Source: Bdellovibrionota bacterium (GTDB lineage: Bacteria; Bdellovibrionota_C; UBA2361; OMII01). Taken from it: a DNA stretch of 64,000 nt. Every line of letters begins with the position of its first letter. Position 1 is the stretch's first letter. The translations under genes and the position numbers were made by a program. Shown here one piece after another: positions 18,337 through 60,367 of the stretch. Under the pieces are notes generated by a model. The model was not told the origin of the DNA and made no database searches. It saw only the letters and a list, made by a program, of their open reading frames with translations. The DNA lies in contig JBILFA010000004.1 of assembly GCA_044351795.1 (NCBI GenBank), positions 3-64,002 of the forward strand. Direction: 5' to 3'.

Positions 18337-18443
18337 TGGGGCTAGCCCACTGTCACTATTTATCCAGTGCCGGATCGCAGCTCATATCTGCTTATGACAT
18401 GCAGAAAAATCATCGACCATCTTGGCGGTAATACCTTTACCCG

Positions 18444-19661: not shown

Positions 19662-21678
19662 CGCCCTCGGCCATACGCTTCTCCCAAGGGTCCATCGCGG
19701 TTAGGGAAGGCAGCCTACCCTTCTCCTCCTTGAAGCGCTTTGCTCGCTTCGCGAGCTCACGAGCCTCCTCTATAGACATGCTGATTCGCTTTGCTGCAAT
19801 AACTTCGGCGACCATCCTAAGGCGCTCTTCACTCATGGACTTAGCGAGTATCGCGTATGCCTCACCAAACGGATTGACGCTATCAATAAGGTCGATATCA
19901 AGTTCTCTCACATGCAGAGCATATCGTCGAACACCATCGATGAGAGCCGTATTCCCGGTCTCGACTGAGCTCCCTTGATTCAAATCCGTCAGCGCCTTCT
20001 TGCCCTGCTGGACAAGATTTAGTGCAGCGACCGCGTGCTGGCGGATCGCTTCTTGATCCTCCTCTCCACATTCAGGGTATCGCTCCTTGATAATCTTACC
20101 CATTCTGACTTGTGTTAGCTCCTGCGGGACCACCTCACTGTCGAACAAGCCTCGCTCAATAGTCTGCTTGTCTTGGACAAATGCTGTAATCAATTCAGTC
20201 AGGTCTTCTCGACAGATCCGTTGGGCCTCCCTACTCTTCGGTGCCGCTAACCCCTTTATCTCAAGCTCAAGTTGACCGGTGTTTGGGTTCACACCGACAT
20301 TACACCTAGCTTGGTCGTACCCCCCGTCCCCGTAATCCATCCCAGGGGTCGGTCCGTTATTGGGATTCTTCGGGCGGAACTCGAACCTCGGAGCTAGAAC
20401 CTGCTCCATTAGAAGACTTGCGGCGATTGCCTTCAGAGTATCGTTCACCGCTTCATTGACCGCCGATTCGGCCGCGTCAGGCTCAGCAATTAGATTGGTG
20501 AATCGAGCTCTCGTCTTTCCAGGCGCATCTCGAGTGGCTCGTCCAATGATCTGGACTATTTCTGTGAGGCTCGCTCTGTATCCAATCGTCAGCGCATGCT
20601 CACACCAAATCCAATCAAAGCCCTCCTTAGCCATACCCAGGGCGATGATGATATCCACATGGTCTCGGTTGTTCTTTTGATTCGGATCTTTGAGAGAGGC
20701 GGAAACCCTATCGCGTTTAGCTTGTTCATCATCAACCAGATCCGCGATTCGAAGTACCTTTCCGCTCGCAACCTTGACGAGTTGAAATCCTGTCGTTGGG
20801 TCCGTTCCCTGCCACTGTCCTAGCTGTTCGAGAATGTGCTCGACTTCGCGGATCTTGTCCTTCGTGCTCTCTCGCGAGTTCACGTTGGGAATATGGACTA
20901 TAGTTTTCTCATCGTGGTCAAGAACCTTGAGAATCTCGTCCGTGTAGCTGCCAGCATAGAAGTAATATCCAATATCGAGCTGCTTTAAGTACTGATAGCC
21001 ATTAAGCTGCTCGTAGTAGGTGTAAGTGACCGTCTCAAACTTTGCCTCGTCTTCTGGGTGCAAGACCGCTTCGGCGTCACCACGGAAGTATGATCCCGTC
21101 ATAGCCACCAGGTGCGTTTTACCTCGAGCTATCAGCTGACGGACGTGATCCCCTAACCTGCTGTCAGGGTTTGCTGATACGTGATGGAACTCATCTACCG
21201 CTATAAGGCGATCGTCGAATACCTCGACACCGTATTTTTCAACCGCGAACCGGAAAGTTGCGTGCGTACAGACCAGCGCCTTATCTTCGGTCGCAAGAAA
21301 CGCCTTTAGACCATCCACTTTACCACCGTTGTCGCCACCCGGCGCATCGCATAAGTTCCACTTCGGTTCTACCTTCCAGTCAGCCCAAAATCCGTACTGG
21401 GTAAGCGGCTCGTCGTGAAAACTGGATCCTATGGATTTCTCGGGCACTACGATAATAGCCTGTTTGAGCCCTTGATTCTGGAGCTTATCGAGGGCGATAA
21501 ACATTAAGGCCCGACTTTTTCCTGACGCAGGTGGGGACTTTATCAAAAGGTACTGCTCGCCGCGTTTCTGATAAACGCGCTCTTGCATCGGCCGCATGCC
21601 GAGAGCGTTTGAGCGAGTGGAACTTCCGTCCTGAGCATAACTTACCGAAACTGACGGAACCGATATCCCGTTACTCAT
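19618..21678 (-). CDS. DEAD/DEAH-box (SF2) helicase
   Basis: Walker A SPPASGKSRAL, DEFHH box and motif VI QIIGRATRD. There is a C-terminal GRLPSL helicase-associated-like tail. The start overlaps the methyltransferase stop (ATGA). Confidence 0.85.
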   Translation of the reverse strand: MSNGISVPSVSVSYAQDGSSTRSNALGMRPMQERVYQKRGEQYLLIKSPPASGKSRALMFIALDKLQNQGLKQAIIVVPEKSIGSSFHDEPLTQYGFWADWKVEPKWNLCDAPGGDNGGKVDGLKAFLATEDKALVCTHATFRFAVEKYGVEVFDDRLIAVDEFHHVSANPDSRLGDHVRQLIARGKTHLVAMTGSYFRGDAEAVLHPEDEAKFETVTYTYYEQLNGYQYLKQLDIGYYFYAGSYTDEILKVLDHDEKTIVHIPNVNSRESTKDKIREVEHILEQLGQWQGTDPTTGFQLVKVASGKVLRIADLVDDEQAKRDRVSASLKDPNQKNNRDHVDIIIALGMAKEGFDWIWCEHALTIGYRASLTEIVQIIGRATRDAPGKTRARFTNLIAEPDAAESAVNEAVNDTLKAIAASLLMEQVLAPRFEFRPKNPNNGPTPGMDYGDGGYDQARCNVGVNPNTGQLELEIKGLAAPKSREAQRICREDLTELITAFVQDKQTIERGLFDSEVVPQELTQVRMGKIIKERYPECGEEDQEAIRQHAVAALNLVQQGKKALTDLNQGSSVETGNTALIDGVRRYALHVRELDIDLIDSVNPFGEAYAILAKSMSEERLRMVAEVIAAKRISMSIEEARELAKRAKRFKEEKGRLPSLTAMDPWEKRMAEGVAFLQKKVKESTNA

Positions 21679-25840: not shown

Positions 25841-26923
25841 TTACACATTCAGGAATCTCCGATTCATGCTCTCAACAGCGCCGCCTAAGTGGTCGTCACT
25901 AAGGTGAGCGTAGCGATGTACTGTCTGAAGCTGTTTGTGTCCCAGCACACCAGCAATCTCAATTAGCGATGCGCCATTCATAGCAAGGTAGCTAGCCGTG
26001 GTGTGCCGTAGATCGTGAAACCTGAAGTCGGTAATTTTTGCGGCCTTACGCGCCGCTGTCCAGGGAGCAGTAATATCGAAGTGGCGATCCGCCTCTGGCA
26101 CAGGTCGGCAGGGCTTTTTTGGTGAGGGCTTTTCTCCCGGAAACAGAAAGTCAGAATCTGCACGTCTCTGCAAGAGATGCTCTCTTATCAGCTCAAGTGC
26201 CCTGCCCTTCAATGGTACACTACGTCGCTGTCCATTTTTCGTATGGACCAGTATCAGGCGTTCCCGATCCAGATCAACTTGCTTCCACGTGAGAGATAAG
26301 ATCTCCTCTTTTCGCATTCCGGTTGAGAGGGCTAGAAGCACAATCAGATAAAGGGGAGCGTAGTTACTCTTTCTGCAAGCATCCAGGAGACGGGTTAGTT
26401 CGTCCTGATTGAGGTATCGTACCCTAACCGCACTCTGAGGGAATCTCTCTACGTCCTCTACCGGATTGTGATCGATCCATCCCAAGCGACGAGCAAGCTT
26501 GCACGCAATTGACAAGCTACAGAGATGAACCCTCATACTGGATGGAGATAGCCCACCATCTGAAGTACGTCCTGGCGCTGCCTTCAGCGTGCCCATCGCT
26601 TTTTTAATAGCAGCATAGTTAAGTTGCCTGAAAGGGATCGAACCAAGAGCTGCGCCCCAACGAAAGAAGTGCGCTCGGCGACTTAGATCGCAATGATTCT
26701 CTAAAATGTATCTGTCTATCGCATCCTGGACTGTGGGCAGTCTCTCTGCCCCTTTTACTGTGGTGCGCCCTCCGAGTATTTTTAAGTCATGCGCCTTTAT
26801 CCATTCCACTGCGTCGATCCTTCTCTTGAAAGTGGCTGTCAGATTCGGATGCCCCGCACGACGTACCCTCGCCATATAGGTTAGTTCGCCTTTGGAGTTC
26901 TCTCTCCTAAAAATACTACCCAT
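25841..26923 (-). CDS. Tyrosine-type site-specific integrase
   Basis: ALSTGMRKEEILSLTW (Arg I), HDLRHTTASYLAMNG and LGHKQLQTVHRYAHL (catalytic Tyr). It lies next to direct repeat DR-b. Confidence 0.9.
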   Translation of the reverse strand: MGSIFRRENSKGELTYMARVRRAGHPNLTATFKRRIDAVEWIKAHDLKILGGRTTVKGAERLPTVQDAIDRYILENHCDLSRRAHFFRWGAALGSIPFRQLNYAAIKKAMGTLKAAPGRTSDGGLSPSSMRVHLCSLSIACKLARRLGWIDHNPVEDVERFPQSAVRVRYLNQDELTRLLDACRKSNYAPLYLIVLLALSTGMRKEEILSLTWKQVDLDRERLILVHTKNGQRRSVPLKGRALELIREHLLQRRADSDFLFPGEKPSPKKPCRPVPEADRHFDITAPWTAARKAAKITDFRFHDLRHTTASYLAMNGASLIEIAGVLGHKQLQTVHRYAHLSDDHLGGAVESMNRRFLNV

Positions 26924-27232
26924 CGACCCTCCTACTCATAATAGCTGTTGTTATTAGCACAGCTATCTGAAACAGACTCGGCAATCCTGGTTTAGTTGGC
27001 ACTAACGGCGTCGATTTCAAGGAACGCGAAGACGTCCTCTCGCTCCATGAGCTTAATCGGACTTAAGCTTGATGTTGCCGCCTTCTTCGCCCCATCTGTA
27101 AAAGACGATGTGGTGATGAATATCCCTTCATGGGCGCCCTCCCTATTTTGCGGCACTGCGTCTCCTGCCCTTTTCCTTTGGCGTGAACTAGCGGCGAGAC
27201 AAGCGTGCGCATGGCGCTACTAACGGTCTCCC

Positions 27233-27439
27233 CTACTTCGATCTCACCTCAAAGTGATCAATCAACATCCTGCGCTGGATGGTAGCGAACAGAACCCCTC
27301 CCCTCTCCTTCTTCTCGAGGTATAAGAGCATGTTAATTACCAGCGCCTTATGAACGGCTTCTTTCGTCGCATAAGGAGCTACCACAGCGTGATGCGCGGT
27401 GTTTTCGAAGTAGCGCCTTTGGTAAGGCTGGGAAGCCAC
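27233..27439 (-). pseudogene. Displaced 3' fragment of a rep-like gene
   Basis: ...KEAVHKALVINMLLYLEKKERGGVLFATIQRRMLIDHFEVRSK compares with the Rep C-terminus REAFDNALSFNQRFYLEKKERGGVLFATIQRRMLIDHFEAKS. Only about the last 45 codons are homologous. Confidence 0.6.
27240..27329. repeat. Direct repeat DR-b: 90-bp near-identical copy of the rep 3' end
   Basis: Aligns base for base with 38582-38671 with about 7 mismatches by eye, in the same orientation. Confidence 0.75.
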
Positions 27440-28751: not shown

Positions 28752-29531
28752 CTATTTCAGCTGCCCTTTCCTCGGAATTAATGAGGCGGGTAAGGGCCCC
28801 ATGTCGAATCCAATGCCTCGGGAATGAAGGTATCTAAAGCCTTCCCGCTCGAAGTGCTGGCGAAGCTCTTTAAGAGACCACTCGTGGATATGTTCGCTAT
28901 GAACTTCCCTCGTTCGGCCCCACAGATGCCTTTCGATTTGAAACATCTGAGTCTGGTTGACTGTGGGGTAAGTCACCACCATTAATCCACCGGGCTTTAA
29001 CGCGTAAAAAAAATTTCGGATGACCGTTTGGGGATTTAAAACATGTTCCAGAGTCTCAACACTCACCACCTTATCAAATTGGCCTTCATGGACAGCGGCA
29101 GGGCGATCCTGAGCGCTTTCTGTGATCGACTCAAGATCGGATTCAATAAACTGAATTCCAGTGTGATTGTTAGCAGCGGCGGATTCGAAGGCTTTACTGG
29201 TGATGTCTATCGCTACCACCTGGGCCCCCATTTCGGCTACTTTCAAGGAAAGACGGCCATCTCCGCACGCAGCGTCCAAAATAACCTCCCCCGCTTTCGG
29301 GCACAGAAGCTTTAAAGCTGCTTTATGACGTGCCTCATGGTACGCGGCACTTACGTCAAAATTCCCAACGAGGTGAGACGGCTGATATCCTCCACCTTGA
29401 TACTTTTCCTGGTAATAAGCCCTAAGAGCCTCCGGAGAGCCAAAGGTTAGCTTTCCCTCACTCACTACAGATTCCGCGTCACGTTCAGGGCGAGTATTAC
29501 TCAGAGATGGTTCCACTTTTATAGCTCCCAA
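28752..29531 (-). CDS. Class I SAM-dependent methyltransferase
   Basis: Motif I VILDAACGDGRLSL, then DKVVSVETLEHV. It is divergent from the 29801-38001 operon. Confidence 0.75.
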   Translation of the reverse strand: MGAIKVEPSLSNTRPERDAESVVSEGKLTFGSPEALRAYYQEKYQGGGYQPSHLVGNFDVSAAYHEARHKAALKLLCPKAGEVILDAACGDGRLSLKVAEMGAQVVAIDITSKAFESAAANNHTGIQFIESDLESITESAQDRPAAVHEGQFDKVVSVETLEHVLNPQTVIRNFFYALKPGGLMVVTYPTVNQTQMFQIERHLWGRTREVHSEHIHEWSLKELRQHFEREGFRYLHSRGIGFDMGPLPASLIPRKGQLK

Positions 29532-29800
29532 GGAAGCAGACGCTTTAATTTAGCAGACCGCTATTTTAAACCCGCTCAGACTTATACCTGAGTTCTTGAG
29601 TTTGTATAGCGTTAATTGGCCGGGTGTGCTCGCCTCTCCGCGCTGCCTTCCTCACGTGGCAAACCTAGACGATCATGTACGTCGAACTTTACTTTCTATG
29701 AGACCTCATAGAACGATTTTAATTTACATTCAGGAGGATCTACGTTACGAGTGGGCCGCCTGACTTTCTCTATTCCTCTTAAGTACACGTGAGGGGGTTT

Positions 29801-30817
29801 ATGTTTTCATCTCAACACAGCTCGTCCTTTCCCTTTTTGCCGAGACAAAGGGAGTCTGGGGCCTCGGAAAGCACCCAGGGGCCGATGATTGCTCTCTCTG
29901 ATCGTTCACGGGATATTTTCTCTTCTATCCTTGCAGAAGTCGCGGGCGGTCCCTACTCTAACCAAGAGCTACCGCGTTACCTAACAGCTGCAACGAGACT
30001 TTGGGCGGAGAATCTTCCCGAGCTAGATAGAGCCCGTTCTCTATTGGTAGACCACGCCGTCCCTGCAGTTCTGTTAACGAACCTTCCCCAGGATGAGACG
30101 GTCCCACCGACCGGACCAGACGGCCGCATGATGAAGAAGACATCTGTTAGTGAAGCGGTGAGCGTCGCCTTGCTGCATCCCTTAGGGCGGCTGGCCACGC
30201 ATGCAGACAAACGAGACGGTGCTGTTGTTAGTGACCTGTATCCAAAAAAGTCTGATGCGGCAGCCCAGCTTGGCTCAAATTCAGTGTTTTTGGAGTGGCA
30301 TACAGACGAAGCTTTTCATGACGTCCCACCATCTTTTGTTTGCCTCTACGGTGTACGAGGAGAACCCTTAGCACAAACCCTTATCGCTGAGTTCAATTGC
30401 TCTGAGCTGCCACCGGAGATCGCGAGAGTCCTTTCCGAACCTCACTTCAGCATTCGATCGGACGGTTCCCATGCTGTGTTAGGGCAAAGAAAGAAAGCTG
30501 CTGTTCTTGACGGCGAAGGAGCCGATGCGCTGGTTAGATATGACCCGGTATTCACGGATTTCGACAACGCTGAGGCTGAGCTCGCCTTCGCTCAGTTTGA
30601 AGCATTTACGTTGAGAAAGTCGCTTAGCTTTACCATAGATACGGGGCAGGCACTTATCTTCAATAATAAAATCGGGATACATGCGAGAACAGAGTTTCCT
30701 CCCCGATTTGATGGCACTGATAGGTGGATCATCAAGTCGCAAGTAGTACCCGTAAGCACCCCCGAAGAGAAGTTTCACAATTCCAATCGATTTTGGCTAA
30801 ACCCAATTGGAGCTTGA
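29801..30817 (+). CDS. Fe(II)/2-oxoglutarate dioxygenase, clavaminate-synthase-like (VioC/AsnO/TauD superfamily)
   Basis: LEWHTDEAFHDVPPSFVCLYGVRGEPLAQT carries the HxD facial-triad start, followed by the FH..P....L.C.R....T pattern of CAS-like amino-acid hydroxylases. The distal IGIHARTEF follows. The start is ATG 29801 (the track GTG at 29789 is also possible). Confidence 0.7.
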   Translation: MFSSQHSSSFPFLPRQRESGASESTQGPMIALSDRSRDIFSSILAEVAGGPYSNQELPRYLTAATRLWAENLPELDRARSLLVDHAVPAVLLTNLPQDETVPPTGPDGRMMKKTSVSEAVSVALLHPLGRLATHADKRDGAVVSDLYPKKSDAAAQLGSNSVFLEWHTDEAFHDVPPSFVCLYGVRGEPLAQTLIAEFNCSELPPEIARVLSEPHFSIRSDGSHAVLGQRKKAAVLDGEGADALVRYDPVFTDFDNAEAELAFAQFEAFTLRKSLSFTIDTGQALIFNNKIGIHARTEFPPRFDGTDRWIIKSQVVPVSTPEEKFHNSNRFWLNPIGA

Positions 30818-30821
30818 GCTC

Positions 30822-31712
30822 ATGAACCAAGAAATACAAAAGCATACCGAACTCGGATTATCCGACCTACTAATAAAACCCTTCCTGTATGAATCTAGCG
30901 CTCAGTACAGCGTAGTCCTCCCCGAGTACCATTTCGCCGAAGGGACGGACATGGAGATGGCCGCGAGCAAGCTGAATAAGTTGGCGAGTCGACGAGAAAA
31001 GCCAGTCACGTTAGTGGACTGCGGGGCAGGCCCCGGTCGAGTGTGGGAATATCTAGGGGCGGATTTTGCCACAGTTGTCGCTGTCGAGCCGAGTCGAGGC
31101 ATGTGGAGAGCTGACCCGCCCTCTAACGTTAAATACGTGGAGTCAGGTGCTTTTGAATTTCTGAAAGCCAATCCAAGTACCGAAAGAATCGTTTCATTTC
31201 TTTGGTCAGTGAACTACCCACTACTGAGCTTTTTCGAGAAGTACGATCCAAAACAAGGAAAGGTCATTCAATTCGACGCACACAAGGGAGATGCTGATTG
31301 TAGAGCGGCAGTGCGCGAGGTGCTAGAGCGCAACTCTGGCTCCGACTATTTTATCATGGTGTTCGATGATGAGTCGCCCGAACAGCAATTTGTTACCTCT
31401 GTTTGGGAACGGGAAGCTCCATTTCCTTTCAATGACCGTTCCTATACTCGGCGACTCTTATTAGATGAAATGCAACGCTTCGCAGAGAAAAGTGGTGCCC
31501 TTTTCACGCAGGAGCATCACGCGGGTTTTGCGGACTATGGGCCCGGAGGTGTTGCCTTGAGTCGCATGCTCAATTTCCATCTGAGGGGACACTTCAACAA
31601 TGACCCAGAAGTTGTACAAGCCGCAGCGACTTTTCTTAGCTCCTACCGTGATGACAGCACTACTAAGGTGCCTGTGGGGATGCACATACTTCAGCTGCAG
31701 GCTGTTCCATGA
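30822..31712 (+). CDS. Class I SAM-dependent methyltransferase
   Basis: Motif I LVDCGAGPGRVWEYL. The ATG at 30822 lies 4 nt after the upstream stop. The track start at 30807 is a non-ATG codon inside the upstream gene. Confidence 0.65.
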   Translation: MNQEIQKHTELGLSDLLIKPFLYESSAQYSVVLPEYHFAEGTDMEMAASKLNKLASRREKPVTLVDCGAGPGRVWEYLGADFATVVAVEPSRGMWRADPPSNVKYVESGAFEFLKANPSTERIVSFLWSVNYPLLSFFEKYDPKQGKVIQFDAHKGDADCRAAVREVLERNSGSDYFIMVFDDESPEQQFVTSVWEREAPFPFNDRSYTRRLLLDEMQRFAEKSGALFTQEHHAGFADYGPGGVALSRMLNFHLRGHFNNDPEVVQAAATFLSSYRDDSTTKVPVGMHILQLQAVP

Positions 31713-32536
31713 GCACTCCTTGCGTTCTCATTACCGGGGCCTCGGGTACGTTCGGGCTAGCGCTTACAGATTTCTTTCTGAATACCGGTTGGTCTGTGAT
31801 TGCTGGGGTGCGTCGTGCTGCCGCGGAATCATATGTCAGAGAGCGCTTTGGAGCGGCGGTTTCGAACCAACGGCTCTCCATACTGTCCTTAAATGCGCTT
31901 GATTTATCACAGTGCCACGAAGTCCTGAAGGTGTATCTGCAATCGAATCCAGCCCCAAATGCGCTCATCAACAACGCTGCGACGGATTCATGGGAGGCAA
32001 TTGAGGACTTAACCCCGGAAGTTCTCATTGAAGTGCTACAGGTCAACTTGGTATTTCCCGCAATTCTAACGCGAGTTCTTATTAAACACTGGCGAGATGC
32101 CAAGCAGAGCGGCTCTATCCTTCACATTTCGTCTCTGCTTGCTAACTTTGGGGCTCTCGATAGCAGTGCCTATGCTGCTAGCAAGGGGGGTCTAGAGGCG
32201 TTCTCGAGAGCCGTTGCGGTTGAAGCAGGGCCTTATGGTATCCGCTCGAATGTTCTTCGTATTGCTGCGTGTCAACATGGTCTGACATCGCGTCACGAGC
32301 TACCGAGCCTAGATATTCGCTTCACAAGCGCTAACAACAACTCTACTAATATCGAGCTCATCCCCTTACAGCGACGAGGTGATATCGCCGACTTCTGTCG
32401 TGCTGCATCTTTTCTCGTTGGTCCAGAGGCGTCCTTTATTACAGGACAGGAGTTGACTGCTGATGGTGGACTCTCGGTTGTCTATCCTGGGTATTCTTCA
32501 CCGAGCTGCGGCCAGTTAGGAGCCGAAAATGTTTGA
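31709..32536 (+). CDS. Short-chain dehydrogenase/reductase (SDR)
   Basis: ITGASGTFG (TGxxxGxG), LINNAAT and YAASKGGLEAF (YxxxK). ATGA overlap with the upstream gene. Confidence 0.85.
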   Translation: MSTPCVLITGASGTFGLALTDFFLNTGWSVIAGVRRAAAESYVRERFGAAVSNQRLSILSLNALDLSQCHEVLKVYLQSNPAPNALINNAATDSWEAIEDLTPEVLIEVLQVNLVFPAILTRVLIKHWRDAKQSGSILHISSLLANFGALDSSAYAASKGGLEAFSRAVAVEAGPYGIRSNVLRIAACQHGLTSRHELPSLDIRFTSANNNSTNIELIPLQRRGDIADFCRAASFLVGPEASFITGQELTADGGLSVVYPGYSSPSCGQLGAENV

Positions 32537-33779
32537 ACGGGTTGTTAATCCATCTGCTTTTGCACTCCCCTCTGGGCTTGGTCAGCTCGAGAGGTCGACA
32601 GTGTCTATATCTGGAGATGACCATGAAGTAATGGCGGCATTTGCCCATCGGGCCGTAGTCGAAGGAGCGAACGTAGTACTTCTGCCAAGTTCGGGTGGAC
32701 AAGTTACGCTACCTTCTTTTAACGACAACATTATCGTCAACCTTCACTGCCCAAAAGATTCGCCTACCATTATTTCTACACAAAGCTCCGATGGGCGCCT
32801 GGGACCTCTTCATTCGGGAACCCTGACCTTGTACACTTCCGGAAGTACGGGGGAGCCAAGGCCTGTAACCTTGTCCCGACAGCAGCTGGATTTAACGGCG
32901 CGATGGTATCGTGACATATATGGTCTAACTCCCGACTCCGTCATAGTGAGTTCCCTTCCGCTTACTTACAACTTTTCCTTCATAGCAGGCGTATGGACTG
33001 CGCAGACTACTGGATGCGTTTATCAGCATGTGTCGCAAGAGCGCTTTGCCCTTGGCATCGAGGCAGCTCGATTGCATGCTGATAAGGTCATTGTGCTCGC
33101 GAATCCCGTGGTTATTGAGTCAATGATGAACGAGCACAGTCTCAGTGCTTTCAGTAATATCTTATTCGATACTGGCGGGGCTCCCTTGAGTACAACAGCA
33201 TTGCGCATGTTTAGGGATCGCATAGGAGATATTCGTGAAGGGTACGGGCTAACGGAAACCTGCTCGCTCACACACTTTGATACCGAGGGCACAGAGGACT
33301 CGTTAGGTACTGTAGGGCGGGCGCTGACCGGGGTAAATTTTGATATTCGTCACACACCTGCACGGCAGCCTGAGTTATGGATAGCATCACCTAATCTAGA
33401 ACAAGGGGGTTTTAGCGCGGATCGCTTAGTCGACGGGTATTACCGCACTGGCGATTTAGCACGCATAGATGCGGGCGGGCGCTTGCGACTTTTGGGCCGA
33501 TCTTCTGATCACTGTATTGGGGGGTATTATCCACGCGATACTCTCGACATTCTCGGCCCCCTCTTGGGTATGCGATGTGCATTGGTGCAACACGCTGGGC
33601 CGAATAGCGTGCTTATCAAGTTGAGACACATTGATGAGGAGCAACTGCCTGCACGTATGGCAGCGCTCGTATCCGAGACACACCAGATACCCTACAGTGG
33701 CGTTCGCGTGATGAGCCAGACCTCACCTCTTACCCACTCTCTTAAGTTAACTCGTGAGCTCGGGGGGCAGACCAACTGA
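32529..33779 (+). CDS. Adenylate-forming enzyme (AMP-dependent synthetase/ligase, short form)
   Basis: LYTSGSTGEPRPV, GYGLTET and YRTGDLA core motifs. At 416 aa it is shorter than typical acyl-CoA ligases. 8-nt overlap with the SDR gene. Confidence 0.75.
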   Translation: MFERVVNPSAFALPSGLGQLERSTVSISGDDHEVMAAFAHRAVVEGANVVLLPSSGGQVTLPSFNDNIIVNLHCPKDSPTIISTQSSDGRLGPLHSGTLTLYTSGSTGEPRPVTLSRQQLDLTARWYRDIYGLTPDSVIVSSLPLTYNFSFIAGVWTAQTTGCVYQHVSQERFALGIEAARLHADKVIVLANPVVIESMMNEHSLSAFSNILFDTGGAPLSTTALRMFRDRIGDIREGYGLTETCSLTHFDTEGTEDSLGTVGRALTGVNFDIRHTPARQPELWIASPNLEQGGFSADRLVDGYYRTGDLARIDAGGRLRLLGRSSDHCIGGYYPRDTLDILGPLLGMRCALVQHAGPNSVLIKLRHIDEEQLPARMAALVSETHQIPYSGVRVMSQTSPLTHSLKLTRELGGQTN

Positions 33780-35578
33780 TGTGTGGCCTTGTCGGAATAA
33801 TTCAACTTCGCGGTGAGATTACGTCCAATCAGGTGGACCAAGTACGCTGGGGTGTCGAGCGCCTAAAACACCGCGGCCCCGACGGTGCCCAGTACTGGGC
33901 TTCTGGGAACTTTTGTGTGGCGCACGCAAGGTTGTCAATATTCAACCATGAGTCCAGCGCTTCTCAGCCTTTTGTATCAGACCGAGCTGTCCTTGCGTGC
34001 AATGGCGAAATCTACAACTGTCGCGAACTCGCGGCTGAATTGGGTATAGACTACCACTCTCTCAGAAGCGACTGTGAAGTCGTGTTACGGGGATACGAAG
34101 TATGGGGCATATCTGTGGTGGCGCGTCTGAGGGGAGATTTCGCATTTGCCCTTTTTGATCGGATCTCTCACAAGGCTTACCTCGTTCGAGACCATATCGG
34201 GGTTAAGCAGCTAGTCTATACTCGTATCGGTGATGCCATAGCATTCGCTTCAGAAGCCAAAGCATTAGCAGGCCTCGGTGGTTTGGTGCTGGAGCCGTCT
34301 GTCGATAAGATTGCCGAAGACTGGGTGATGGGGTTTTGGGGCGATAAGGCGTCTACCTACTTCAAATCGGTAGACCACATCAAACAGGGGTGTTTTCTGG
34401 AGTGCTCAGTAGAGGGGCCCCCTAGGGAAGTCACTTATTGGTCTCCCCTGGACCTGCCGATCCGCTCGATGTCAAAAGATGTCTTTGTGAGTCAATTCGA
34501 TGACACGCTAAAGACAGCCACCGCAGTGCGGCTAATGGGTCAGGCTAAGATAGGTACCCTTCTTTCCGGCGGTGTAGATAGCAGTCTCACTACAGCAATG
34601 ACTGCCAAGGCACTACCGAGGGTGACCTCCTACACTACCACCTACTCTAAAAGTGCGACCAACGAAGATCTAGTTCACGCCGAATTAGTAGCCCAGAAGT
34701 ACCCAAATATTGAACACAGGAAGGTAGATAATGTCCCGGAAGACTTCTCATGGCAGAATCTCTCGACGACTTCCTATCACATGGAGGAAGTCGTATGGGA
34801 TAGGGTGTACTGGGCAATCCTCAACAACTATCGCGCTGCTTCTTCAGATGGGCATCGGGTTATCCTGAGTGGACAGGGTTCTGACGAGCTTTGGCTCGGT
34901 TACTTTTTCACGTTCCCTCACTACAGAGTGTGCGGTTCACAGTGGCAGAAGGATTATCTTATTAACGATTTTTCTCAGGATTCTTTAAGATTCATGGACG
35001 CGCTAGACCCGGCTTTCCTGAATAGCGAACGAGCCAAGGAAATAGTCGCGTCCAATATCGAGCGGAACTTGCTCCCTTATGGGGATCGGGACAAATTAAA
35101 TGGAATCGCTCACTGGGCATTTCGGACGCATCTTCAGAGTAATTTGATGCAAGAGGACCGGCTTTCTATGGCCAGTTCAGTTGAATGCAGAGTACCTCAT
35201 GTCGATATCGAGGTAGTAAAGCTCGCTTATGCTACTCCCAGCTATTTAAAGCTTTTAGATGGGCGCGAAAAGTATCCTGTTCGACAGGTAGCTGCGCGAT
35301 GGCTTCCGATTCAGGTCGCTAACCGCAGCAAGTTCGCCTTCCCTGAGAGTCCGGATTCATATAACAGTGAGATTCATGCAAGACTTCGGGATGGTACTAT
35401 CCCGTCGCTAAACGAGCCAATTCTAGGAGCGATATTCAAGGAAGAGGTTCTAAAGCTTGCGCGCACCAATCCTGCTTCACTTGCCCCTCAGCTTCTATGG
35501 CGCATCGTAGCCATAGCAAACTTCAGCGCTATTTTTACTTCGTCCTTGAAGACGCTCACTGTGCATGATACTCGGTAG
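33779..35578 (+). CDS. Asparagine synthetase B-type glutamine amidotransferase
   Basis: N-terminal MCGLVGI (Ntn Cys2 nucleophile present) and the PP-loop LLSGGVDSS. The start overlaps the upstream stop (TGATG). Confidence 0.85.
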   Translation: MCGLVGIIQLRGEITSNQVDQVRWGVERLKHRGPDGAQYWASGNFCVAHARLSIFNHESSASQPFVSDRAVLACNGEIYNCRELAAELGIDYHSLRSDCEVVLRGYEVWGISVVARLRGDFAFALFDRISHKAYLVRDHIGVKQLVYTRIGDAIAFASEAKALAGLGGLVLEPSVDKIAEDWVMGFWGDKASTYFKSVDHIKQGCFLECSVEGPPREVTYWSPLDLPIRSMSKDVFVSQFDDTLKTATAVRLMGQAKIGTLLSGGVDSSLTTAMTAKALPRVTSYTTTYSKSATNEDLVHAELVAQKYPNIEHRKVDNVPEDFSWQNLSTTSYHMEEVVWDRVYWAILNNYRAASSDGHRVILSGQGSDELWLGYFFTFPHYRVCGSQWQKDYLINDFSQDSLRFMDALDPAFLNSERAKEIVASNIERNLLPYGDRDKLNGIAHWAFRTHLQSNLMQEDRLSMASSVECRVPHVDIEVVKLAYATPSYLKLLDGREKYPVRQVAARWLPIQVANRSKFAFPESPDSYNSEIHARLRDGTIPSLNEPILGAIFKEEVLKLARTNPASLAPQLLWRIVAIANFSAIFTSSLKTLTVHDTR

Positions 35579-35581
35579 CCC

Positions 35582-36103
35582 ATGAGACGTTATTGTATTT
35601 TTCTTATCGCCGAATCGCCTGCCCTTGCGCTGATAGAGGATATCAGAATACTGCTCGATCCATTGAGCGGTGTTGTTCCTGCTCACCTTACGGTGGTGTT
35701 TCCTTTTTCTACAGAGATGTCTCCTAAGGTTATTATCGACCATGTGGCTGATCGCGCTGCTCACTTCTCTCCCATCGAGACGACCTTGGTAGGTTGTCAC
35801 CTTCAAAACGATGGATACATTCACATTTCAGTCCTGGATCAGCAGAAGCAACTATCCGCGCTACATGCGCAGCTGTATTCGGGTAGCCTCGAGTCGTTCT
35901 TGGATCCGAATTTTCCATTCCTGCCTCACATAACTATTGGGCGCTACACGGCTACGTCTCAAGACGGCGCAGAAAAACAGATACAGAGACTTTCCTTCCC
36001 AATTTGTTTGCGTTTAAGCAGGTTAGTCTTAGAGGAGATCCTTGAGGACGATAAATCGAGCCCTCTGCTGGAAGTGACGTTAGGAGGTAAGGTATCAACA
36101 TGA
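35582..36103 (+). CDS. 2H phosphoesterase (LigT / 2'-5' RNA ligase-like)
   Basis: Two H-x-T/S motifs at the expected spacing, AHLTVVFPF and LPHITIGR. 173 aa. Confidence 0.7.
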   Translation: MRRYCIFLIAESPALALIEDIRILLDPLSGVVPAHLTVVFPFSTEMSPKVIIDHVADRAAHFSPIETTLVGCHLQNDGYIHISVLDQQKQLSALHAQLYSGSLESFLDPNFPFLPHITIGRYTATSQDGAEKQIQRLSFPICLRLSRLVLEEILEDDKSSPLLEVTLGGKVST

Positions 36104-38001
36104 ATGTATCTATAAACTCATCAAATAACTCAAGCCCTCAGCCATCGGCAGAGAGTATCTCGGAAAAGATAGGCGGGGTGATCTCGACTTTTCAGGAGTT
36201 TGCCACTCTAGCCACTCATCTTAGGCTGGATAGGGAGAGCCGTGGTTACATTGCCCGATTGTCGTATCCCCTTTTGCGTGCCATCGCGACTCTAGAGTGT
36301 GCGGCGGCGGAGGTTACAAAGGCACCGCTATCTCCCGCTCGCCTCGGTGACGTGCCAGAGGGCGTCGTTGGAGATTTATCGGTTTCTTTCCCCCACTTGA
36401 TGAAGGAGGACCGCCGCCGATTTCCAGAGCTAGCCAGTGAGATCGCTGCGGTTGCAGTTCAGCAACGAGAGATAGGATTTTTAGAGGTGTATAATACCGG
36501 TCCTTATCTGAATGCCGTGCTCGATCGTCGAACCTTCATTCCTGCGGTGTTGTCTCAAGTGGCCGAGCTCGGAGCGCTTTATGGGCAGACCGATACACAT
36601 AGAGGAGAGGCTGCCTACATCGATTTTTCAAGTCCGAACATCGGAAAGAGCCTTCACGTTGGGCATGCAGGATCTACGATTGTTGGCCATGTACTTTCAA
36701 ATATCTTTGATGCGGCTGGCTACTCGGTGCTGCGGGTTAACTATATTGGAGATTGGGGGGTCGCTGCAGCCAAGCTCCTTCAAGGTGTTCGAACACAGGG
36801 AGACCCGCCAAGAAGTCTATCCCCTGAAGAAGCGCTAGACAGATACTCAACTATCTATTCCACCACTTCTCAGCGCTATAAGGAAGAGGAGGCTCTTCAA
36901 CAGAGCGTGAATCATGTATTGTTGCAATTACAATCCAGAGACAGTCAGACGCTTGATCTTTTGGACTCCATACGCCGCCGCTCCGTCGACGGTTTGAACG
37001 AAATTTATGCCAAGCTCGGTGTATACTTTCATGCCTATGTGGGAGAGAGCTTCTACGAGGAATCTCTTGCAGATACTATAAGCGAATGCCTCGCTCGTGG
37101 AATCGCTCAACAAGAGGCGACTGCGTGTCCTGTAGTCGTTGATTTGTGCGATAAAAGGCTGCCATCTTTTGTTCTCGCTAGGGAGGATGGCACCTCGACA
37201 TACTTGGCACGAGATGTTGCATCCTTGAGGGTACGAAAAGAATTAACCGCTGCTGATATCTCCCTATATGTTGTGGGAAGTGAGCAGAGGCTTCATCTGG
37301 CGCAGGTCATTGAAACGGCTACACGGATGGGATACATCGCGCCTGGAGAGGCACACCATGTAGTGATTGGCTTACTCACGAAGTACGGAGAAAAAGTATC
37401 GTCACGGGATGGCTCGTCTCTTGCTCTTGAAGGTTTTCTCGCATTTCTTGAGAAGGAAGCGGCAACTGTAATAGCAAGCCGACAGCCAGACATGGCAATT
37501 GAGGAGCAACGACGCTTGGCGAGCCAACTAGCGAGGGGCGCTCTATTCTTCACTTTCTCTCAGCGAAATCCCGACAAAGGATTTGAGTTTGATGTCCAGA
37601 AGATATTCGCGCTAGATGGGCGAAGCGCGTTATACCTTCAGTATGCGGCCACTCGAGCGGATAGCCTTCTGACGAAAGCAGGTACAGCCAATAAAGAAAT
37701 TTCAGCTCTCAACTGGGAGGAAGTTTGTCGTCTCATGCCTAAGGCTGCTGAGGAATTGGTGTTTGAAATATCACGACTACCGATAGCAATCGAAAATGCT
37801 CTTCAGCTTCGCTCTCCCCATCCGCTCGCAGATAGTGGTTTTCGCCTTGCCCAACGCTTCAACCGATTCTTCAATGAGGTGCAGGTTAAGGGCGCTGAGG
37901 GAGATGTTGGGCAGTTTTACCGGCATCTGGTTAAAGCATTCCGGCAGACACTAGGAAATATACTGACCATGATTAACATAGAAGTCCCTGAGCGGATTTA
38001 G
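36100..38001 (+). CDS. argS: Arginine--tRNA ligase paralog (class I aaRS, full length)
   Basis: SSPNIGKSLHVGHAGSTIVGHVLSNIFDAAGYSVLRVNYIGDWG carries the HIGH region and the ArgRS-specific GDWG. It also has KYGEKVSSRDG (degenerate KMSK), a DALR-type anticodon-binding end YLQYAATRADSLL, and an N-terminal additional domain (GPYLNAVLD). ATGA overlap with the 2H gene. Confidence 0.8.
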   Translation: MNVSINSSNNSSPQPSAESISEKIGGVISTFQEFATLATHLRLDRESRGYIARLSYPLLRAIATLECAAAEVTKAPLSPARLGDVPEGVVGDLSVSFPHLMKEDRRRFPELASEIAAVAVQQREIGFLEVYNTGPYLNAVLDRRTFIPAVLSQVAELGALYGQTDTHRGEAAYIDFSSPNIGKSLHVGHAGSTIVGHVLSNIFDAAGYSVLRVNYIGDWGVAAAKLLQGVRTQGDPPRSLSPEEALDRYSTIYSTTSQRYKEEEALQQSVNHVLLQLQSRDSQTLDLLDSIRRRSVDGLNEIYAKLGVYFHAYVGESFYEESLADTISECLARGIAQQEATACPVVVDLCDKRLPSFVLAREDGTSTYLARDVASLRVRKELTAADISLYVVGSEQRLHLAQVIETATRMGYIAPGEAHHVVIGLLTKYGEKVSSRDGSSLALEGFLAFLEKEAATVIASRQPDMAIEEQRRLASQLARGALFFTFSQRNPDKGFEFDVQKIFALDGRSALYLQYAATRADSLLTKAGTANKEISALNWEEVCRLMPKAAEELVFEISRLPIAIENALQLRSPHPLADSGFRLAQRFNRFFNEVQVKGAEGDVGQFYRHLVKAFRQTLGNILTMINIEVPERI

Positions 38002-38490: not shown

Positions 38491-38577
38491 AATGGCACCC
38501 CGATACTTAAATCCCACTAGACCGTGAAAGACTATGATGGACAATTCACCGCGAGGGATTTACTTACCAGAACCCTA

Positions 38578-40080
38578 TCATGATTTCGCCTCAAAGTGAT
38601 CAATCAACATCCTGCGCTGGATAGTAGCAAACAGGACCCCTCCCCTCTCCTTCTTCTCGAGGTAAAAGCGCTGGTTAAACGACAGCGCATTATCAAAGGC
38701 CTCCCTCTCAAAGCTCACTTTCTCTTCCTCACTGAGAGCAGCCCAAAATGTATCGAACTCCTGCTCTAGTTCAGACGGCTTCTCAGGAGCCTTAGCTTCA
38801 GGCTGAACTGCTGGCTCCTGCTTGCGCGTAGGCTTTACAGCGAGTCCAGCTGAGACAACGCGAAGTTCAGACTTAGCCTCCTCTTTGCTCTTTAGAAAGC
38901 CGCTCGGTGGCGAGTAATCATCCTGGATAGCAGTCACAAGAAACCCTGCGGGGTTGCTCGAGCAGCGCTTATCCCCTCGCTGCATCATCCAATCGAAGAT
39001 AGCTATCTTGCTAGCGATGCGATTTGCCTCATAGCTCCTCACAAGCTTTGACGCTTTCGCTGGAGAGACCCCCCTGGCCTTTAGCTGCTCAAAGGCCGCG
39101 TCCTGCTCTGTAGACAACAGGAGCTTCGCTTCAGAGGCTCCCCTATCGAAAACCACTTTCCAGTTACCCTTGGTGACCTTTATGAAGCGCTCTTCCTTTG
39201 GAAGCGGCTTAATAAAGCCCATCCCTTCAAGCTCTAAGAGAGGCTTAGAGAACAAGCGCTTTACTTCAGCCACAGGCGTCGTGCGCGATATGCCGACGTG
39301 CTCATAGGCGAAGCGCAACAGGTCATACTCAAGGCGTGCCCTGCGATAGAAGTGCTTGTCGAGGAATCGGTACATACGCTTTGAGATAGCGCTCTTTAGT
39401 TGCTTGTAGATGTCTAAGTCGATCTCTTTAAGGTTACCGGCCTTAAAGCTTCTAAAGACGATATCGTTCCACACGAAGTGAGAGCGGCCAGCGTTTTCGT
39501 CTCCTGGGTTAAGGCTCTTTTTGTTCGCGCGGCGCTCCTTGTCGTACACCGTCACTGAGTCCAGTAAGTGAAAGCTCTCGTTGACCCAGCACTGCTCTTC
39601 CTTGGACCACCACGCCTTGTCGTAAAAGAGCGTAATGCTCACCCAGCGCTTGAGGGACTCATCGATGCGCCTGTAGCTCTTCGCTGAGTCGTTCCACCCC
39701 AAAAGCTTAATGAGCTCGTACGAAGAGAAGTACACGGTGCGACTTGCAAAGCGCTGCTTGTCGGTAAGCTGGATGAGCCCAAGGATAACCTCCTCGTCTA
39801 AGGCGGTAGGAAGCCCATACATGTCAGAGGCAGCGATGGTTAACTTGCGAGTGATGTGCTGGCCAATGCTCTGGTCGAAGATGGTGTCGTGAAACTCTAG
39901 CTTCTTCTGCCCATCGGGAACTCGGTCAGCAAGGCTCGCAAGAGGAAACTCCGCAAAGTTCAGTTCGTCCTTGAAGCGCTCAGCATGGTTCGACGGTGAG
40001 AACTCGTCACTGCCCTCGGGTAGAGAGGACACGATCTCAAAGAGAGGCTCGGTCTGTTTTGCATGGTTTGAGTTGGTCAT
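38578..40080 (-). CDS. Plasmid replication initiator (replication initiator protein A / RPA-like)
   Basis: ELNFAEFPLASLADR...YGLPTALDEEVILGLIQLT resembles the RPA N-terminal domain. The gene sits directly downstream of an iteron array. Confidence 0.7.
   Translation of the reverse strand: MTNSNHAKQTEPLFEIVSSLPEGSDEFSPSNHAERFKDELNFAEFPLASLADRVPDGQKKLEFHDTIFDQSIGQHITRKLTIAASDMYGLPTALDEEVILGLIQLTDKQRFASRTVYFSSYELIKLLGWNDSAKSYRRIDESLKRWVSITLFYDKAWWSKEEQCWVNESFHLLDSVTVYDKERRANKKSLNPGDENAGRSHFVWNDIVFRSFKAGNLKEIDLDIYKQLKSAISKRMYRFLDKHFYRRARLEYDLLRFAYEHVGISRTTPVAEVKRLFSKPLLELEGMGFIKPLPKEERFIKVTKGNWKVVFDRGASEAKLLLSTEQDAAFEQLKARGVSPAKASKLVRSYEANRIASKIAIFDWMMQRGDKRCSSNPAGFLVTAIQDDYSPPSGFLKSKEEAKSELRVVSAGLAVKPTRKQEPAVQPEAKAPEKPSELEQEFDTFWAALSEEEKVSFEREAFDNALSFNQRFYLEKKERGGVLFATIQRRMLIDHFEAKS
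38582..38673. repeat. Direct repeat DR-a: the resident rep 3' end (candidate attB-derived core)
   Basis: Counterpart of 27240-27329 and 1146-1179. Confidence 0.7.
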
Positions 40081-40226
40081 ACCCTGTGGCTCCTTGAAGA
40101 CACGCTCTGTCCTAAACCAAAAAGAGAAAACACCATCACGGCTGCTGATGTATTTTTAATATCAGTTTTAAGGACATCTTTTAGAGATGAGATTGTTTGT
40201 GTAATTGAGCACTTAGAAGACCTTTT

Positions 40227-40630
40227 TGTGGGCCAAAAGACGGTAGTTCTCGTTAATTCGATGGGTAGAGGCACGGTACCCCTGTGGGTCAAGGCACGGT
40301 AGCAACATGGGTCAAAGCACGGTAAAAATGTGGGTGGAAGTACGGTATGTGAGTTCAGAAGGTATGAACTTCTTAACTTCTGAAGTGATGAACCTCTGAA
40401 ATTCCTCATTACCGACCCAGTGAGAGGAGAAAACATGGGTGAAAGCACGGTAGAAACGTGGGTCAAAGCACGGTAGGTGCTCACCAAAACGTGGGCCAAG
40501 GGTCGGGGTGGAAGGGTAACCGTAGAGGAGTGCAGGGGGTTGCGTAAGTGCTCTAAATGCCTAGGTAAATAGGTGATTCGTGCCGGGAGAAAGGCACTCC
40601 ATGTAGCGCTTTTGTGGTTCAAAGCACGGT
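40227..40630. repeat. oriV-like iteron array
   Basis: At least 9 copies of a roughly 19-bp unit (approx. aTGGGTCAAAGCACGGTAg). TGGGT cores lie at 40229, 40262, 40285, 40308, 40331 (four phased at 23 bp), 40436, 40459, 40492 and 40615. The array lies directly upstream of rep. Confidence 0.85.
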
Positions 40631-40978
40631 AAATAGAGCTGAGAAGGCCTCTTTCGCCAAGGCCTCCGAACATGCGTGGCAGCACTGCATATATAGAGGA
40701 GTAAGGGGGTCTGTTACCCCGACACAAATCTCCTACCCGCTCCTGGCTGAAGCGGTATGTGGCTTCCCTCTGGCTCTGGAACACCACTGGTTACTCCTTC
40801 TCGTTTCCTCATCCACCCGCACTGAGTCGGATAGTCTTGGGGCACAAAACATCCGGTGCCACTCACATTCATACATTTCTCTAAACACAGAAGCTTCAAG
40901 TGCTCCTCTGCGTTCACCGCGCTCGATGAGACGTGAGGCCTCCCCTACTCTGCTTCTCGCTTCACTACTGCTTTACCC

Positions 40979-60145: not shown

Positions 60146-60367
60146 ATGGAAGACAAACTTGGATGGAAAGCTATTCAGAACTCTATGGCCATTTCCGGGT
60201 ACGAGATCAGTGATGAGGACCTCGCGCTCATGACAGCTCACTATGAGGCTAAGAACATGGATGAACTGGCCCTTAAGATAGTCCAGATAACTCAGGAGAC
60301 CGGTCGCCCGATGCTTGATGTTGCCAAGGAAGTTTTAGGCGGAGTCGTGGAGGGATACCAAAAATGA
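60146..60367 (+). CDS. VbhA/FicA-like small partner of the Fic protein (inhibitory Glu apparently replaced)
   Basis: ATG 60146 with SD aaaggag. AIQNSMAISGYEISDEDLALM aligns with the VbhA inhibition helix ([ST]xxxE[GN]) but reads S-M-A-I-S-G. 4-nt overlap with the fic gene. Confidence 0.45.
   Translation: MEDKLGWKAIQNSMAISGYEISDEDLALMTAHYEAKNMDELALKIVQITQETGRPMLDVAKEVLGGVVEGYQK

Follow-up and report, generated by a model that had tools for sequence, protein, structure and literature searches.

The 64,000-nt stretch of contig JBILFA010000004.1 analysed here (the window, in whose numbering all positions are given) carries an operon of seven same-strand genes, about 8 kb long (29801–38001), that touch or overlap throughout. 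In order, these genes encode an Fe(II)/2-oxoglutarate (Fe/2OG) dioxygenase, a predicted S-adenosylmethionine (SAM) methyltransferase (gene 2), a short-chain dehydrogenase/reductase (SDR), a short ANL adenylate-forming enzyme, an AsnB-type amidotransferase, a 2H phosphoesterase and a full-length arginyl-tRNA synthetase (ArgRS). The six-gene conserved core of this operon, its convergent linkage to ArgRS, the mobility of the cassette and its lack of a characterised relative are firm results. As the best explanation we tentatively propose that the operon is a mobile, carrier-free small-molecule cassette, with neither non-ribosomal peptide synthetase (NRPS) nor polyketide synthase (PKS), whose product or an intermediate interferes with arginine charging and whose ArgRS is a protective target-replacement copy. 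The product, the target and the idea of an aminoacyl-adenylate chemistry are hypotheses.

One enzyme set beside two unrelated ArgRS genes

At loci L007–L012 and L015, which come from several metagenomes and represent a second lineage, the dioxygenase, methyltransferase, SDR, ANL and AsnB-type genes follow one another in the same order as in the window, with an ArgRS gene adjacent to the set, upstream and divergently transcribed. An earlier note on this DNA had grouped the seven operon genes with a divergently transcribed methyltransferase; five enzymes and an ArgRS do recur in the second lineage, which lacks the 2H phosphoesterase and also the divergent methyltransferase, so that six of the eight genes are conserved. 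The enzymes of the two lineages are 47–56% identical overall (to the L007 orthologues: dioxygenase 51%, SDR 49%, ANL enzyme 47%, AsnB-type enzyme 56%; gene 2 is 51% identical to P0122), and the L007 genes are likewise tightly coupled, with overlaps of 4 nt, 13 nt and 1 nt. At L015:3846–5053 an IS3-family transposase lies inside the dioxygenase gene of a cluster that is otherwise 97% identical to the L007 type, which indicates that the pathway has been inactivated in some populations.

The ArgRS genes of the two lineages, in contrast, are not orthologous. The window and L007 proteins are 22–24% identical, against about 50% for the adjoining enzymes, fall into different deep ArgRS clades in the tree and also differ in the position and orientation of their genes. 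The L007 ArgRS belongs to a populous clade and is about 50% identical to Bdellovibrionota and Bacteroidota enzymes; in its closest group (62–64% identity) the two members examined, P0252 and P0258, occupy a conserved YkuD–Lpp–YkuD–ArgRS housekeeping context. It has an N-terminal Add-1 domain, and both ArgRS keep the anticodon-binding DALR domain. Unrelated ArgRS genes beside orthologous enzyme sets point to independent recruitment under selection for ArgRS activity itself and are hard to explain otherwise; what ties ArgRS to the cassette would then be function rather than inheritance. As a background value, ArgRS occurs within 10 kb of generic AsnB-like genes in 1 of 80 neighbourhoods, and the other operon enzymes occur in none of these 80.

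The window ArgRS is full-length, as the earlier note had it (Table 1), and retains the HVGH (HIGH) and VSSRDG (KMSKS-equivalent) motifs. Alignment to 1bs2 shows that the equivalents of E148, N153, Y347, D351 and Q375, which we take to be the arginine-pocket residues of yeast ArgRS (yeast numbering), are conserved. PF03485 (Arg_tRNA_synt_N, Add-1) finds no match in this protein, and residues 79–160 still align with residues 32–110 of Neisseria gonorrhoeae ArgRS. None of 5.8 billion proteins exceeds 31% identity to it. It lies on a very long branch of the tree and deviates at 12 of 54 near-invariant positions (those with conservation of 90% or more across about 150 ArgRS), the most of these roughly 150 enzymes, whose median is 1. 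Among its atypical changes are R191G, directly behind HVGH, and T370A, within the arginine-binding loop Y-L-T-R-D. Being on a conjugative plasmid, it is presumably additional to the essential chromosomal argS.

The cassette is mobile in both lineages. A 131-nt direct repeat occurs in the window in two copies only, 84% identical (none expected by chance), one on each side of the operon. The minus-strand translation of the left copy, ...LEKKERGGVLFATIQRRMLIDHFE, matches the C-terminus of the RPA replication protein; because the left copy is thus an RPA remnant and the intact RPA gene ends at the right copy, about 11.3 kb with the operon must have been inserted into the 3′ end of the replication gene. 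A tyrosine integrase gene (25841–26923) lies just outside the repeats. At L008, repeats of about 330 nt (793–1122 and 10527–10874; 89–96% identical), located inside a duplicated 174-aa open reading frame (ORF), enclose the ArgRS and the five enzymes and leave a downstream S66 peptidase outside. In both lineages, then, the direct repeats take in the ArgRS with the enzymes and leave out neighbouring genes.

The conjugative nature of the replicon, also claimed in the earlier note, is evident from the relaxase, type IV coupling protein (which shares only about 44% identity with plasmid proteins of proteobacteria), VirB11-like ATPase, RPA replication protein, ParA and ArdC encoded in the window. 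Megablast of the region against 72,556 plasmids gave no match to a known plasmid, and tblastn with the AsnB-like protein and the dioxygenase returned only generic relatives at 25–32% identity. The cluster is rare: two scans of 185,579 species-representative genomes, one with a gene 2 profile and one with an AsnB profile, found no instance; the dioxygenase/AsnB variant forms one single 50%-identity cluster in the whole library of representatives; and gene 2 has relatives in only two other 90%-identity clusters among the 5.8 billion proteins and only 128 relatives in 1.84 billion representatives (exhaustive profile search). Nor did the profile libraries, PADLOC, PDB structures, Agn proteins or the literature searched yield a match to a characterised pathway, in keeping with the earlier note.

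Table 1. Positions of the operon genes, the flanking repeats and the loci of a related module (window numbering unless a locus is given).
Feature	Position	Strand	Evidence or remark
Left direct repeat, 131 nt	27231–27361		Remnant, last ~30 codons of RPA replication gene; left edge of insertion
Divergent class I SAM methyltransferase	28752–29531	−	Pfam Methyltransf_23/31/11, 59–75 bits
Fe(II)/2-oxoglutarate dioxygenase	29801–30817	+	Clavaminate-synthase-like, free-amino-acid hydroxylase family
Gene 2, predicted divergent class I SAM methyltransferase	30822–31712	+	AF2 model, Foldseek; signature protein of the module
SDR	31709–32536	+	Pfam adh_short_C2 94 bits; TGxxxGxG, S-Y-K triad
Short ANL adenylate-forming enzyme, 416 aa	32529–33779	+	Pfam AMP-binding 80 bits, residues 100–292
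AsnB-type amidotransferase, Gln-hydrolysing	33779–35578	+	TIGR01536 327 bits vs 267 cut-off
2H phosphoesterase, YjcG-type	35582–36103	+	PF13563 79 bits; both HxT motifs; PDB 2d4g
ArgRS, full-length, highly divergent	36100–38001	+	TIGR00456 323 bits vs 262 cut-off; DALR_1 68 bits
Right direct repeat, 131 nt	38573–38703		Overlaps 3′ end of intact RPA gene (38578–40080, minus strand); right edge
Four-gene module loci	L013:7018–12090; L016:10001–14608; L017:185–2795; L018:10001–14548; L020:6275–10855; L023:3627–8647		

Two observations on other ArgRS stand apart from this argument. P0001 (L002:3062–4891), the only ArgRS that groups with the window protein (31% identical), has three rare substitutions in common with it (R to G after HIGH, W to F/L and R to Y); its gene adjoins Amt and GlnA in an organism of 34% G+C, and it may represent a divergent ArgRS subfamily that was the source of the plasmid copy. 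P0278, P0279 and P0302 are ArgRS of 753–765 aa, 48–49% identical to the L007 ArgRS, with a fused N-terminal GNAT acetyltransferase. A GNAT acetyltransferase confers immunity to the ArgRS inhibitor trifolitoxin, and such a fusion could be a double immunity protein.

Operon enzymes and the pathway they suggest

The ORF list and the sequence agree with the eight ORFs and six junction types of the earlier note. The dioxygenase and gene 2 are separated by a 4-nt gap (TGA-GCTC-ATG), gene 2 and the SDR overlap in ATGA, the SDR and ANL genes overlap by 8 nt, the ANL and AsnB-type genes by 1 nt (TGATG), a 3-nt gap precedes the 2H phosphoesterase gene, and the latter overlaps the ArgRS gene in ATGA. A Shine–Dalgarno-like GAGGGGG just 5′ of the ATG at 29801 favours this start, the one first proposed, over an upstream GTG at 29789. 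The protein families named for the seven genes are likewise correct, six by Pfam or NCBIfam and gene 2 by its AlphaFold model and distant relatives.

The dioxygenase is TauD/clavaminate synthase (CAS)-like. Its NCBIfam equivalog scores (GntD 116, VioC 100 and CS1 78 bits) lie far below the cut-offs of 345–450; it belongs to none of the characterised equivalogs. The best PDB matches are AsnO (79 bits) and OrfP (76 bits), followed by CmnC, KDO1, VioC, NapI and CAS; these nearest characterised relatives are free-amino-acid hydroxylases, several of which act on arginine or its cyclised derivatives. Alignment to AsnO places the metal triad HxD...H in WHTDEAFH and IHARTEF, whereas AsnO itself has HxE. 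HxE is the usual form of the triad in the clavaminate-synthase-like family. The same alignment places DGTDRW in the dioxygenase, and the C-terminal Arg of the DRW motif is present and would have the role expected of it.

Gene 2 had been called a SAM methyltransferase, a call that turns out to be right by fold and distant Pfam links, but one that Pfam alone could not make (20.8 bits, under the 27-bit cut-off). Its AlphaFold model (pLDDT 84) has a class I SAM-methyltransferase fold, with HNMT, Tam, HvrF and MrsA as Foldseek matches at a TM score of about 0.55; the motifs DCGAGPGR and AVEP are invariant in the family; and distant relatives found by the exhaustive profile search match Pfam Methyltransf_11/12/25. 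On this model gene 2 is a class I SAM-dependent methyltransferase, and SAM binding is predicted.

The ANL match spans only positions 167–381 of the AMP-binding profile, and PDB alignments indicate an N-terminal subdomain about 60 residues short; MatB and MenE match with about 50 bits over residues 100–338. The motifs A3, A5, A7, A8 and the A10 Lys can all be read from the sequence (LYTSGSTGEPRP, EGYGLTET, YRTGDLA, LGRSSD and HSLKLTR) and are kept in the L007, L013 and L016 orthologues, the L013 protein being 37% identical and the L007 protein, as given above, 47%. The AsnB-type enzyme was said to have an intact Cys2 nucleophile and PP-loop, and indeed starts with MCGLVG and contains LLSGGVDSS, both kept in L007, besides passing the TIGR01536 cut-off (Table 1); among solved structures it is closest to the natural-product hydroxyamidotransferase 7ylz (128 bits), with Escherichia coli AsnB behind. 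The 2H phosphoesterase gene is translationally coupled on both sides and is restricted to the window lineage, with none at L007-type loci.

The divergently transcribed methyltransferase belongs to the family, and has the ORF coordinates, given in the earlier note, but its start is more likely at 29516 (254 aa, gene call) than at 29531. It lies inside the insertion and yet is absent from L007–L010 and L015; not being conserved in the second lineage, it is accessory or unrelated. It matches PADLOC mad2, of a methylation-associated defence system, with 79 bits and could be part of the defence cargo instead of the pathway.

The repeat-bounded segment (27.4–38.6 kb) encodes no NRPS, PKS, precursor of a peptide made on the ribosome and modified after translation (RiPP), transporter or regulator, by Pfam and ORF checks, as the earlier note had stated, and Pfam finds no carrier protein among the operon proteins. 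No conserved small ORF is common to the intergenic regions of the window and L007, and none has a convincing Shine–Dalgarno sequence; a hidden precursor peptide, of the kind for which FzmZ of fosfazinomycin is the precedent, was rejected. There is no Rfam match to a T-box or riboswitch at the gathering threshold or at E ≤ 0.1; promoter and terminator consensus scans scored at or below chance and were not used.

Gene content, translational coupling, six-gene co-conservation, the non-orthologous ArgRS and repeat-bounded mobility are observed; substrate, step order, target and immunity role are what we infer. The six conserved proteins all fall in families that act on small molecules, and family membership suggests the following route. 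First, the CAS/VioC-family Fe/2OG enzyme would hydroxylate an amino acid in free form, with L-arginine or one of its close derivatives as the most plausible substrate. The methyltransferase and the SDR may then tailor it by methylation and alcohol/ketone redox chemistry. Next, the short ANL enzyme would make an acyl-adenylate of a carboxylate and either join it to an amine or leave a stable adenylate-like linkage, and the glutamine-dependent AsnB-type enzyme would turn a carboxylate into an amide, either a carboxamide or a related N-substituted one. Last, the window-specific 2H phosphoesterase could trim or detoxify a phosphoester. The product is probably a tailored, amidated, arginine-derived compound.

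Possible roles of the ArgRS and comparison with known systems

Two reasons are known for an aminoacyl-tRNA synthetase (aaRS) gene inside a biosynthetic cluster: immunity to an aaRS inhibitor, or tRNA-dependent biosynthesis (bioRxiv 10.64898/2025.12.02.691738; PMC8323819). Such genes mark immunity in agrocin 84, albomycin and microcin C-like clusters and in tiarins (PMC8323819; bioRxiv 10.64898/2025.12.02.691738). We favour immunity because ArgRS was recruited twice, because the window copy is plasmid-borne and atypical at active-site motifs, and because no recognisable aminoacyl-tRNA-using enzyme is encoded. The canonical L007 ArgRS, the missing exporter and the small number of lineages keep the rival explanations alive.

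Several points weigh against immunity, and against the pathway as drawn. The L007 ArgRS is entirely canonical: of 154 near-invariant positions only 1 is changed, conservatively, which is also the median number among its relatives, and nothing marks it as a resistant variant or as a second copy in its genome. Independent recruitment rests on two lineages, both from uncultured organisms. Neither cassette encodes an exporter, an uptake-mimic moiety or a regulator (Pfam, ORFs of the insertion, L007). The substrate of the dioxygenase is not assignable from profiles, every equivalog score being far under its cut-off. A second aaRS guards against inhibitors, but only weakly against mis-incorporated analogues.

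The rival that fares best, although we consider it unlikely, is that the ArgRS is biosynthetic and supplies Arg-tRNA(Arg) as an activated donor or carrier for a tRNA-dependent step, in place of a carrier protein. The SerRS VlmL has such a tRNA-dependent role in valanimycin biosynthesis. The cluster has neither a carrier protein nor another means of activating arginine (Pfam), nor an exporter; the L007 ArgRS is fully canonical and both ArgRS keep the DALR domain; and 2H phosphoesterases act on RNA 2′,3′-cyclic ends. Tending the same way is that tRNA-dependent biosynthesis is the second known reason for a cluster aaRS (bioRxiv 10.64898/2025.12.02.691738). However, neither the eight proteins nor the remaining ORFs of the insertion include a recognisable Fem/GNAT, CDPS, PEARL/LanB-like or L/F-transferase. 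The housekeeping ArgRS, moreover, already supplies Arg-tRNA, so that selection for a dedicated copy, gained twice, would be weaker than for immunity, and a plain supply enzyme needs none of the strong deviation that the window ArgRS displays at its active-site motifs. If Arg-tRNA(Arg) did serve the enzyme set as donor or even as carrier, with tRNA replacing the carrier protein, this would be a new class of tRNA-dependent small-molecule pathway, a case that we hold to be distinctly improbable. Its extreme form, a pyrrolysine-like cassette that charges a modified arginine, is barely conceivable: no tRNA gene, such as a Pyl-like cassette with a dedicated tRNA would have, was found in the window or at any ArgRS-linked locus.

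Somewhat less probable than a biosynthetic ArgRS is a pathway that makes a translatable arginine analogue (hydroxy- or methyl-arginine), as product or intermediate, with a discriminating ArgRS that limits mistranslation in the producer. The precedent is close: (3R)-hydroxyarginine from a VioC-like enzyme enters Arg codons, such clusters carry a protective tRNA deacylase, and the fuscazine cluster pairs a VioC-like arginine hydroxylase with a translation-protecting gene (PMC13149037). The dioxygenase here is in the same VioC-like family, and T370A of the window ArgRS lies inside the arginine-binding loop. A second, discriminating ArgRS would, however, leave the housekeeping enzyme free to mis-charge; the L007 ArgRS has no pocket changes; and the ANL, AsnB-type and SDR enzymes point to a more elaborate end product.

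It is very unlikely, in our estimate, that the ArgRS linkage is meaningless, the gene being a hitch-hiker on a mobile cassette or, at L007, the host's housekeeping argS beside an inserted operon. Chance would fit the resemblance of the L007 ArgRS to housekeeping relatives at conserved positions, the restriction to two lineages and the fact that stray housekeeping paralogues do occur on plasmids. It does not fit orthologous enzyme sets beside two unrelated ArgRS, the start of the window ArgRS gene overlapping the upstream stop (ATGA) within the operon, L008 repeats that take in ArgRS with the enzymes, the different and conserved YkuD–Lpp–YkuD synteny of the closest relatives of the L007 ArgRS, or the background of 1 in 80 for ArgRS near AsnB-like genes. 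We give slightly less credence again to a macromolecule-modifying or anti-phage system that acts on tRNA(Arg), ArgRS substrates or proteins, a pyrrolysine-like cassette for a non-canonical amino acid included: the region is rich in defence genes (MmeI-type restriction–modification, helicase, T5orf172, AbiEii), the cassette has a 2H RNA-end esterase, the divergent methyltransferase matches mad2 and biosynthesis enzymes with a dedicated aaRS resemble pylSBCD, but PADLOC 2.0 matches none of the seven operon proteins nor the related four-gene module, no tRNA gene is present in the window or at ArgRS-linked loci, two non-orthologous ArgRS, one of them canonical, speak against a re-specified synthetase, the enzyme families are all typical of small-molecule metabolism and the L007 neighbourhood is not defence-like.

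Among known systems, the earlier note had likened the operon to agrocin 84 (agn, on pAgK84). The likeness holds for enzyme classes: like the operon, agn is borne by a conjugative plasmid and lacks NRPS and PKS, and its annotation (CP000632) lists SAM methyltransferases, SDRs, an Fe/2OG dioxygenase and an adenylating enzyme together with an embedded full-length class I aaRS. It does not extend to specific genes. pAgK84 also has an MccF-like peptidase and the resistant LeuRS AgnB2, whereas here the aaRS is an ArgRS, there is no MccF-like peptidase inside the cassette, and the cassette lacks an exporter (AgnG), an uptake-mimic moiety and nucleoside- or sugar-building genes. In blastp of the window proteins against 17 Agn proteins (CP000632), AgnA and AgnC1 gave no match better than E = 0.2, AgnA, AgnC1, AgnC4–C7 and AgnG stayed unmatched, and the best Agn match was a generic SDR (28%, 62 bits). 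With no Agn protein having a specific homologue, the defining AgnA and AgnC1/C0 included, membership of the agrocin 84 family was rejected. The agrocin 84 pathway is itself experimentally not settled; AgnA has an aaRS-type adenylation domain (PMC8323819). An aminoacyl-adenylate Trojan-horse chemistry, in the form of an arginyl-adenylate mimic, would thus be suggested by analogy only.

Tiarins and trifolitoxin are RiPP inhibitors of aaRS, ArgRS included; an aaRS matching the target in specificity is often encoded in their clusters and is read as immunity, and trifolitoxin is, to the knowledge of the tiarin authors, the first natural selective ArgRS inhibitor (bioRxiv 10.64898/2025.12.02.691738). 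The statement that no ArgRS-linked cluster of such composition had been described therefore needs amending: ArgRS-linked clusters, those of tiarins and trifolitoxin, now have been described, and their composition is unrelated. Tiarins are defined by a TfxB/TfxC pair of FMN-dependent (nitroreductase-like) dehydrogenases with RiPP recognition element (RRE) domains and by a precursor with a conserved Gln preceded by an aaRS-matching residue (bioRxiv 10.64898/2025.12.02.691738). The two enzyme sets do not overlap; Pfam finds no TfxB/TfxC-type domain in the eight proteins or in any further ORF of the insertion, and with pair and precursor peptide both not found, tiarin membership was rejected. A microcin C-like system was rejected too, as the window has no ThiF domain (MccB-type) and no precursor ending in Asn; a small ThiF-like protein occurs only at some loci of the related four-gene module. 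The S66 peptidase at L007 shares 31% identity with AgnC5, a similarity at the family level only. Because its gene is not enclosed by the repeats of the cassette and the window has no counterpart of it, it was not counted as an MccF-like immunity gene.

Single enzymes of the operon have relatives in further pathways. VioC, OrfP, CmnC, GntD, AsnO and FuzA are of the same family as the first gene, which is about 25–30% identical to characterised members; their pathways pair the hydroxylase with pyridoxal phosphate (PLP)-dependent cyclases, NRPS or hydrazine synthetases, whereas here the partners are ANL, AsnB-type, SDR and methyltransferase enzymes and ArgRS. The AsnB-like natural-product amidotransferases TsnB9, a hydroxyamidotransferase, and FzmA are similar at the family level; the Cys nucleophile is kept, and NH3, NH2OH or hydrazine can be transferred. 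FzmA needs a short precursor peptide, for which no conserved small ORF stands here. Dapdiamides are Trojan-horse antibiotics derived from amino acids, made with the ANL ligase DdaG, the AsnB-type amidotransferase DdaH, which converts a distal carboxylate into a carboxamide, and the Fe/2OG oxygenase DdaC. ATP-grasp and carrier-protein components are needed for them, along with an efflux pump; their target is GlmS, not an aaRS, and they are not known to come with an aaRS gene. Their logic may resemble that of the ligase, amidotransferase and Fe/2OG enzymes here. FzmA works on an arginine carboxylate (PMC13622209).

As a kind of system, a biosynthetic cluster marked by self-resistance is a known type; the ArgRS-linked enzyme set is probably undescribed. 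If the product does act on arginine charging, ArgRS would gain its first non-ribosomal small-molecule chemotype, a second one overall and unrelated to trifolitoxin. The orthologous enzymes, paired independently with two unrelated ArgRS, offer a clean natural experiment for resistance-guided genome mining. The cassette, compact and free of NRPS and PKS, is suited to direct heterologous expression and would probably be missed by tools keyed to core biosynthetic enzymes.

A wider module and other genes of the window

The methyltransferase, SDR and ANL triad recurs in a commoner four-gene module at six loci of 34–67% G+C (Table 1), made up of a gene 2-family methyltransferase, an orphan protein of about 600 aa, a short SDR (212–227 aa) and a short ANL ligase (385–413 aa); one of the six lies in an archaeal-looking context, with NAC and Trm56 neighbours. 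No aaRS is present at the six loci as far as the flanking sequence reaches (10 kb at most, with some short contigs), which indicates that the ArgRS link is specific to the rare variant with dioxygenase and AsnB-type enzyme. Exposed here is thus an uncharacterised methyltransferase/SDR/short-ANL module, found in Bacteria and on an archaeal-looking contig, whose partner is either the ~600-aa protein or the dioxygenase, AsnB and ArgRS set.

The ~600-aa protein has the invariant motifs ExxHxHxxRxxDxDQ, DDDHV, ESSPxxR and NxLExYYxxQQxKVR. It matches nothing in Pfam, NCBIfam, PADLOC or PDB, and profile comparison links it to none of ArgRS, AsnB, the dioxygenase and the ANL enzyme; a cryptic AsnB, ArgRS or HIT homologue was rejected at an hhalign probability of at most 0.2, the sole PDB hit being a HIT protein at a non-significant E = 1.8. 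Two of the module loci add a ThiF-like protein of 164–167 aa. A third context of the gene 2 family is found on a 2-kb contig (L022:189–2064), where a relative 40% identical to gene 2, the closest after L007, has a QueC-like PP-loop ATPase on one side and an RlmN/Cfr-like radical SAM enzyme on the other.

Elsewhere in the window, a 23-nt unit (TGGGTCAAAGCACGGTA plus spacer) is present in five iteron-like copies at 40262–40475, just upstream of the RPA replication gene; this array is probably the plasmid origin, and a 236-aa ORF at this array (40077–40787) is probably spurious. A defence-type island (17602–24497) encodes an MmeI-family type IIL restriction–modification enzyme (940 aa), a DEAD/ResIII helicase (686 aa) and a T5orf172-domain protein; AbiEii toxins are encoded at 11123–12094 and 53625–54413, a Fic protein at 60364–61071 and a second integrase at 16278–17252. 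A small cargo operon (1512–6574) encodes a PLP enzyme of the beta-eliminating-lyase family, a 410-aa protein without a Pfam match and two SAM methyltransferases.

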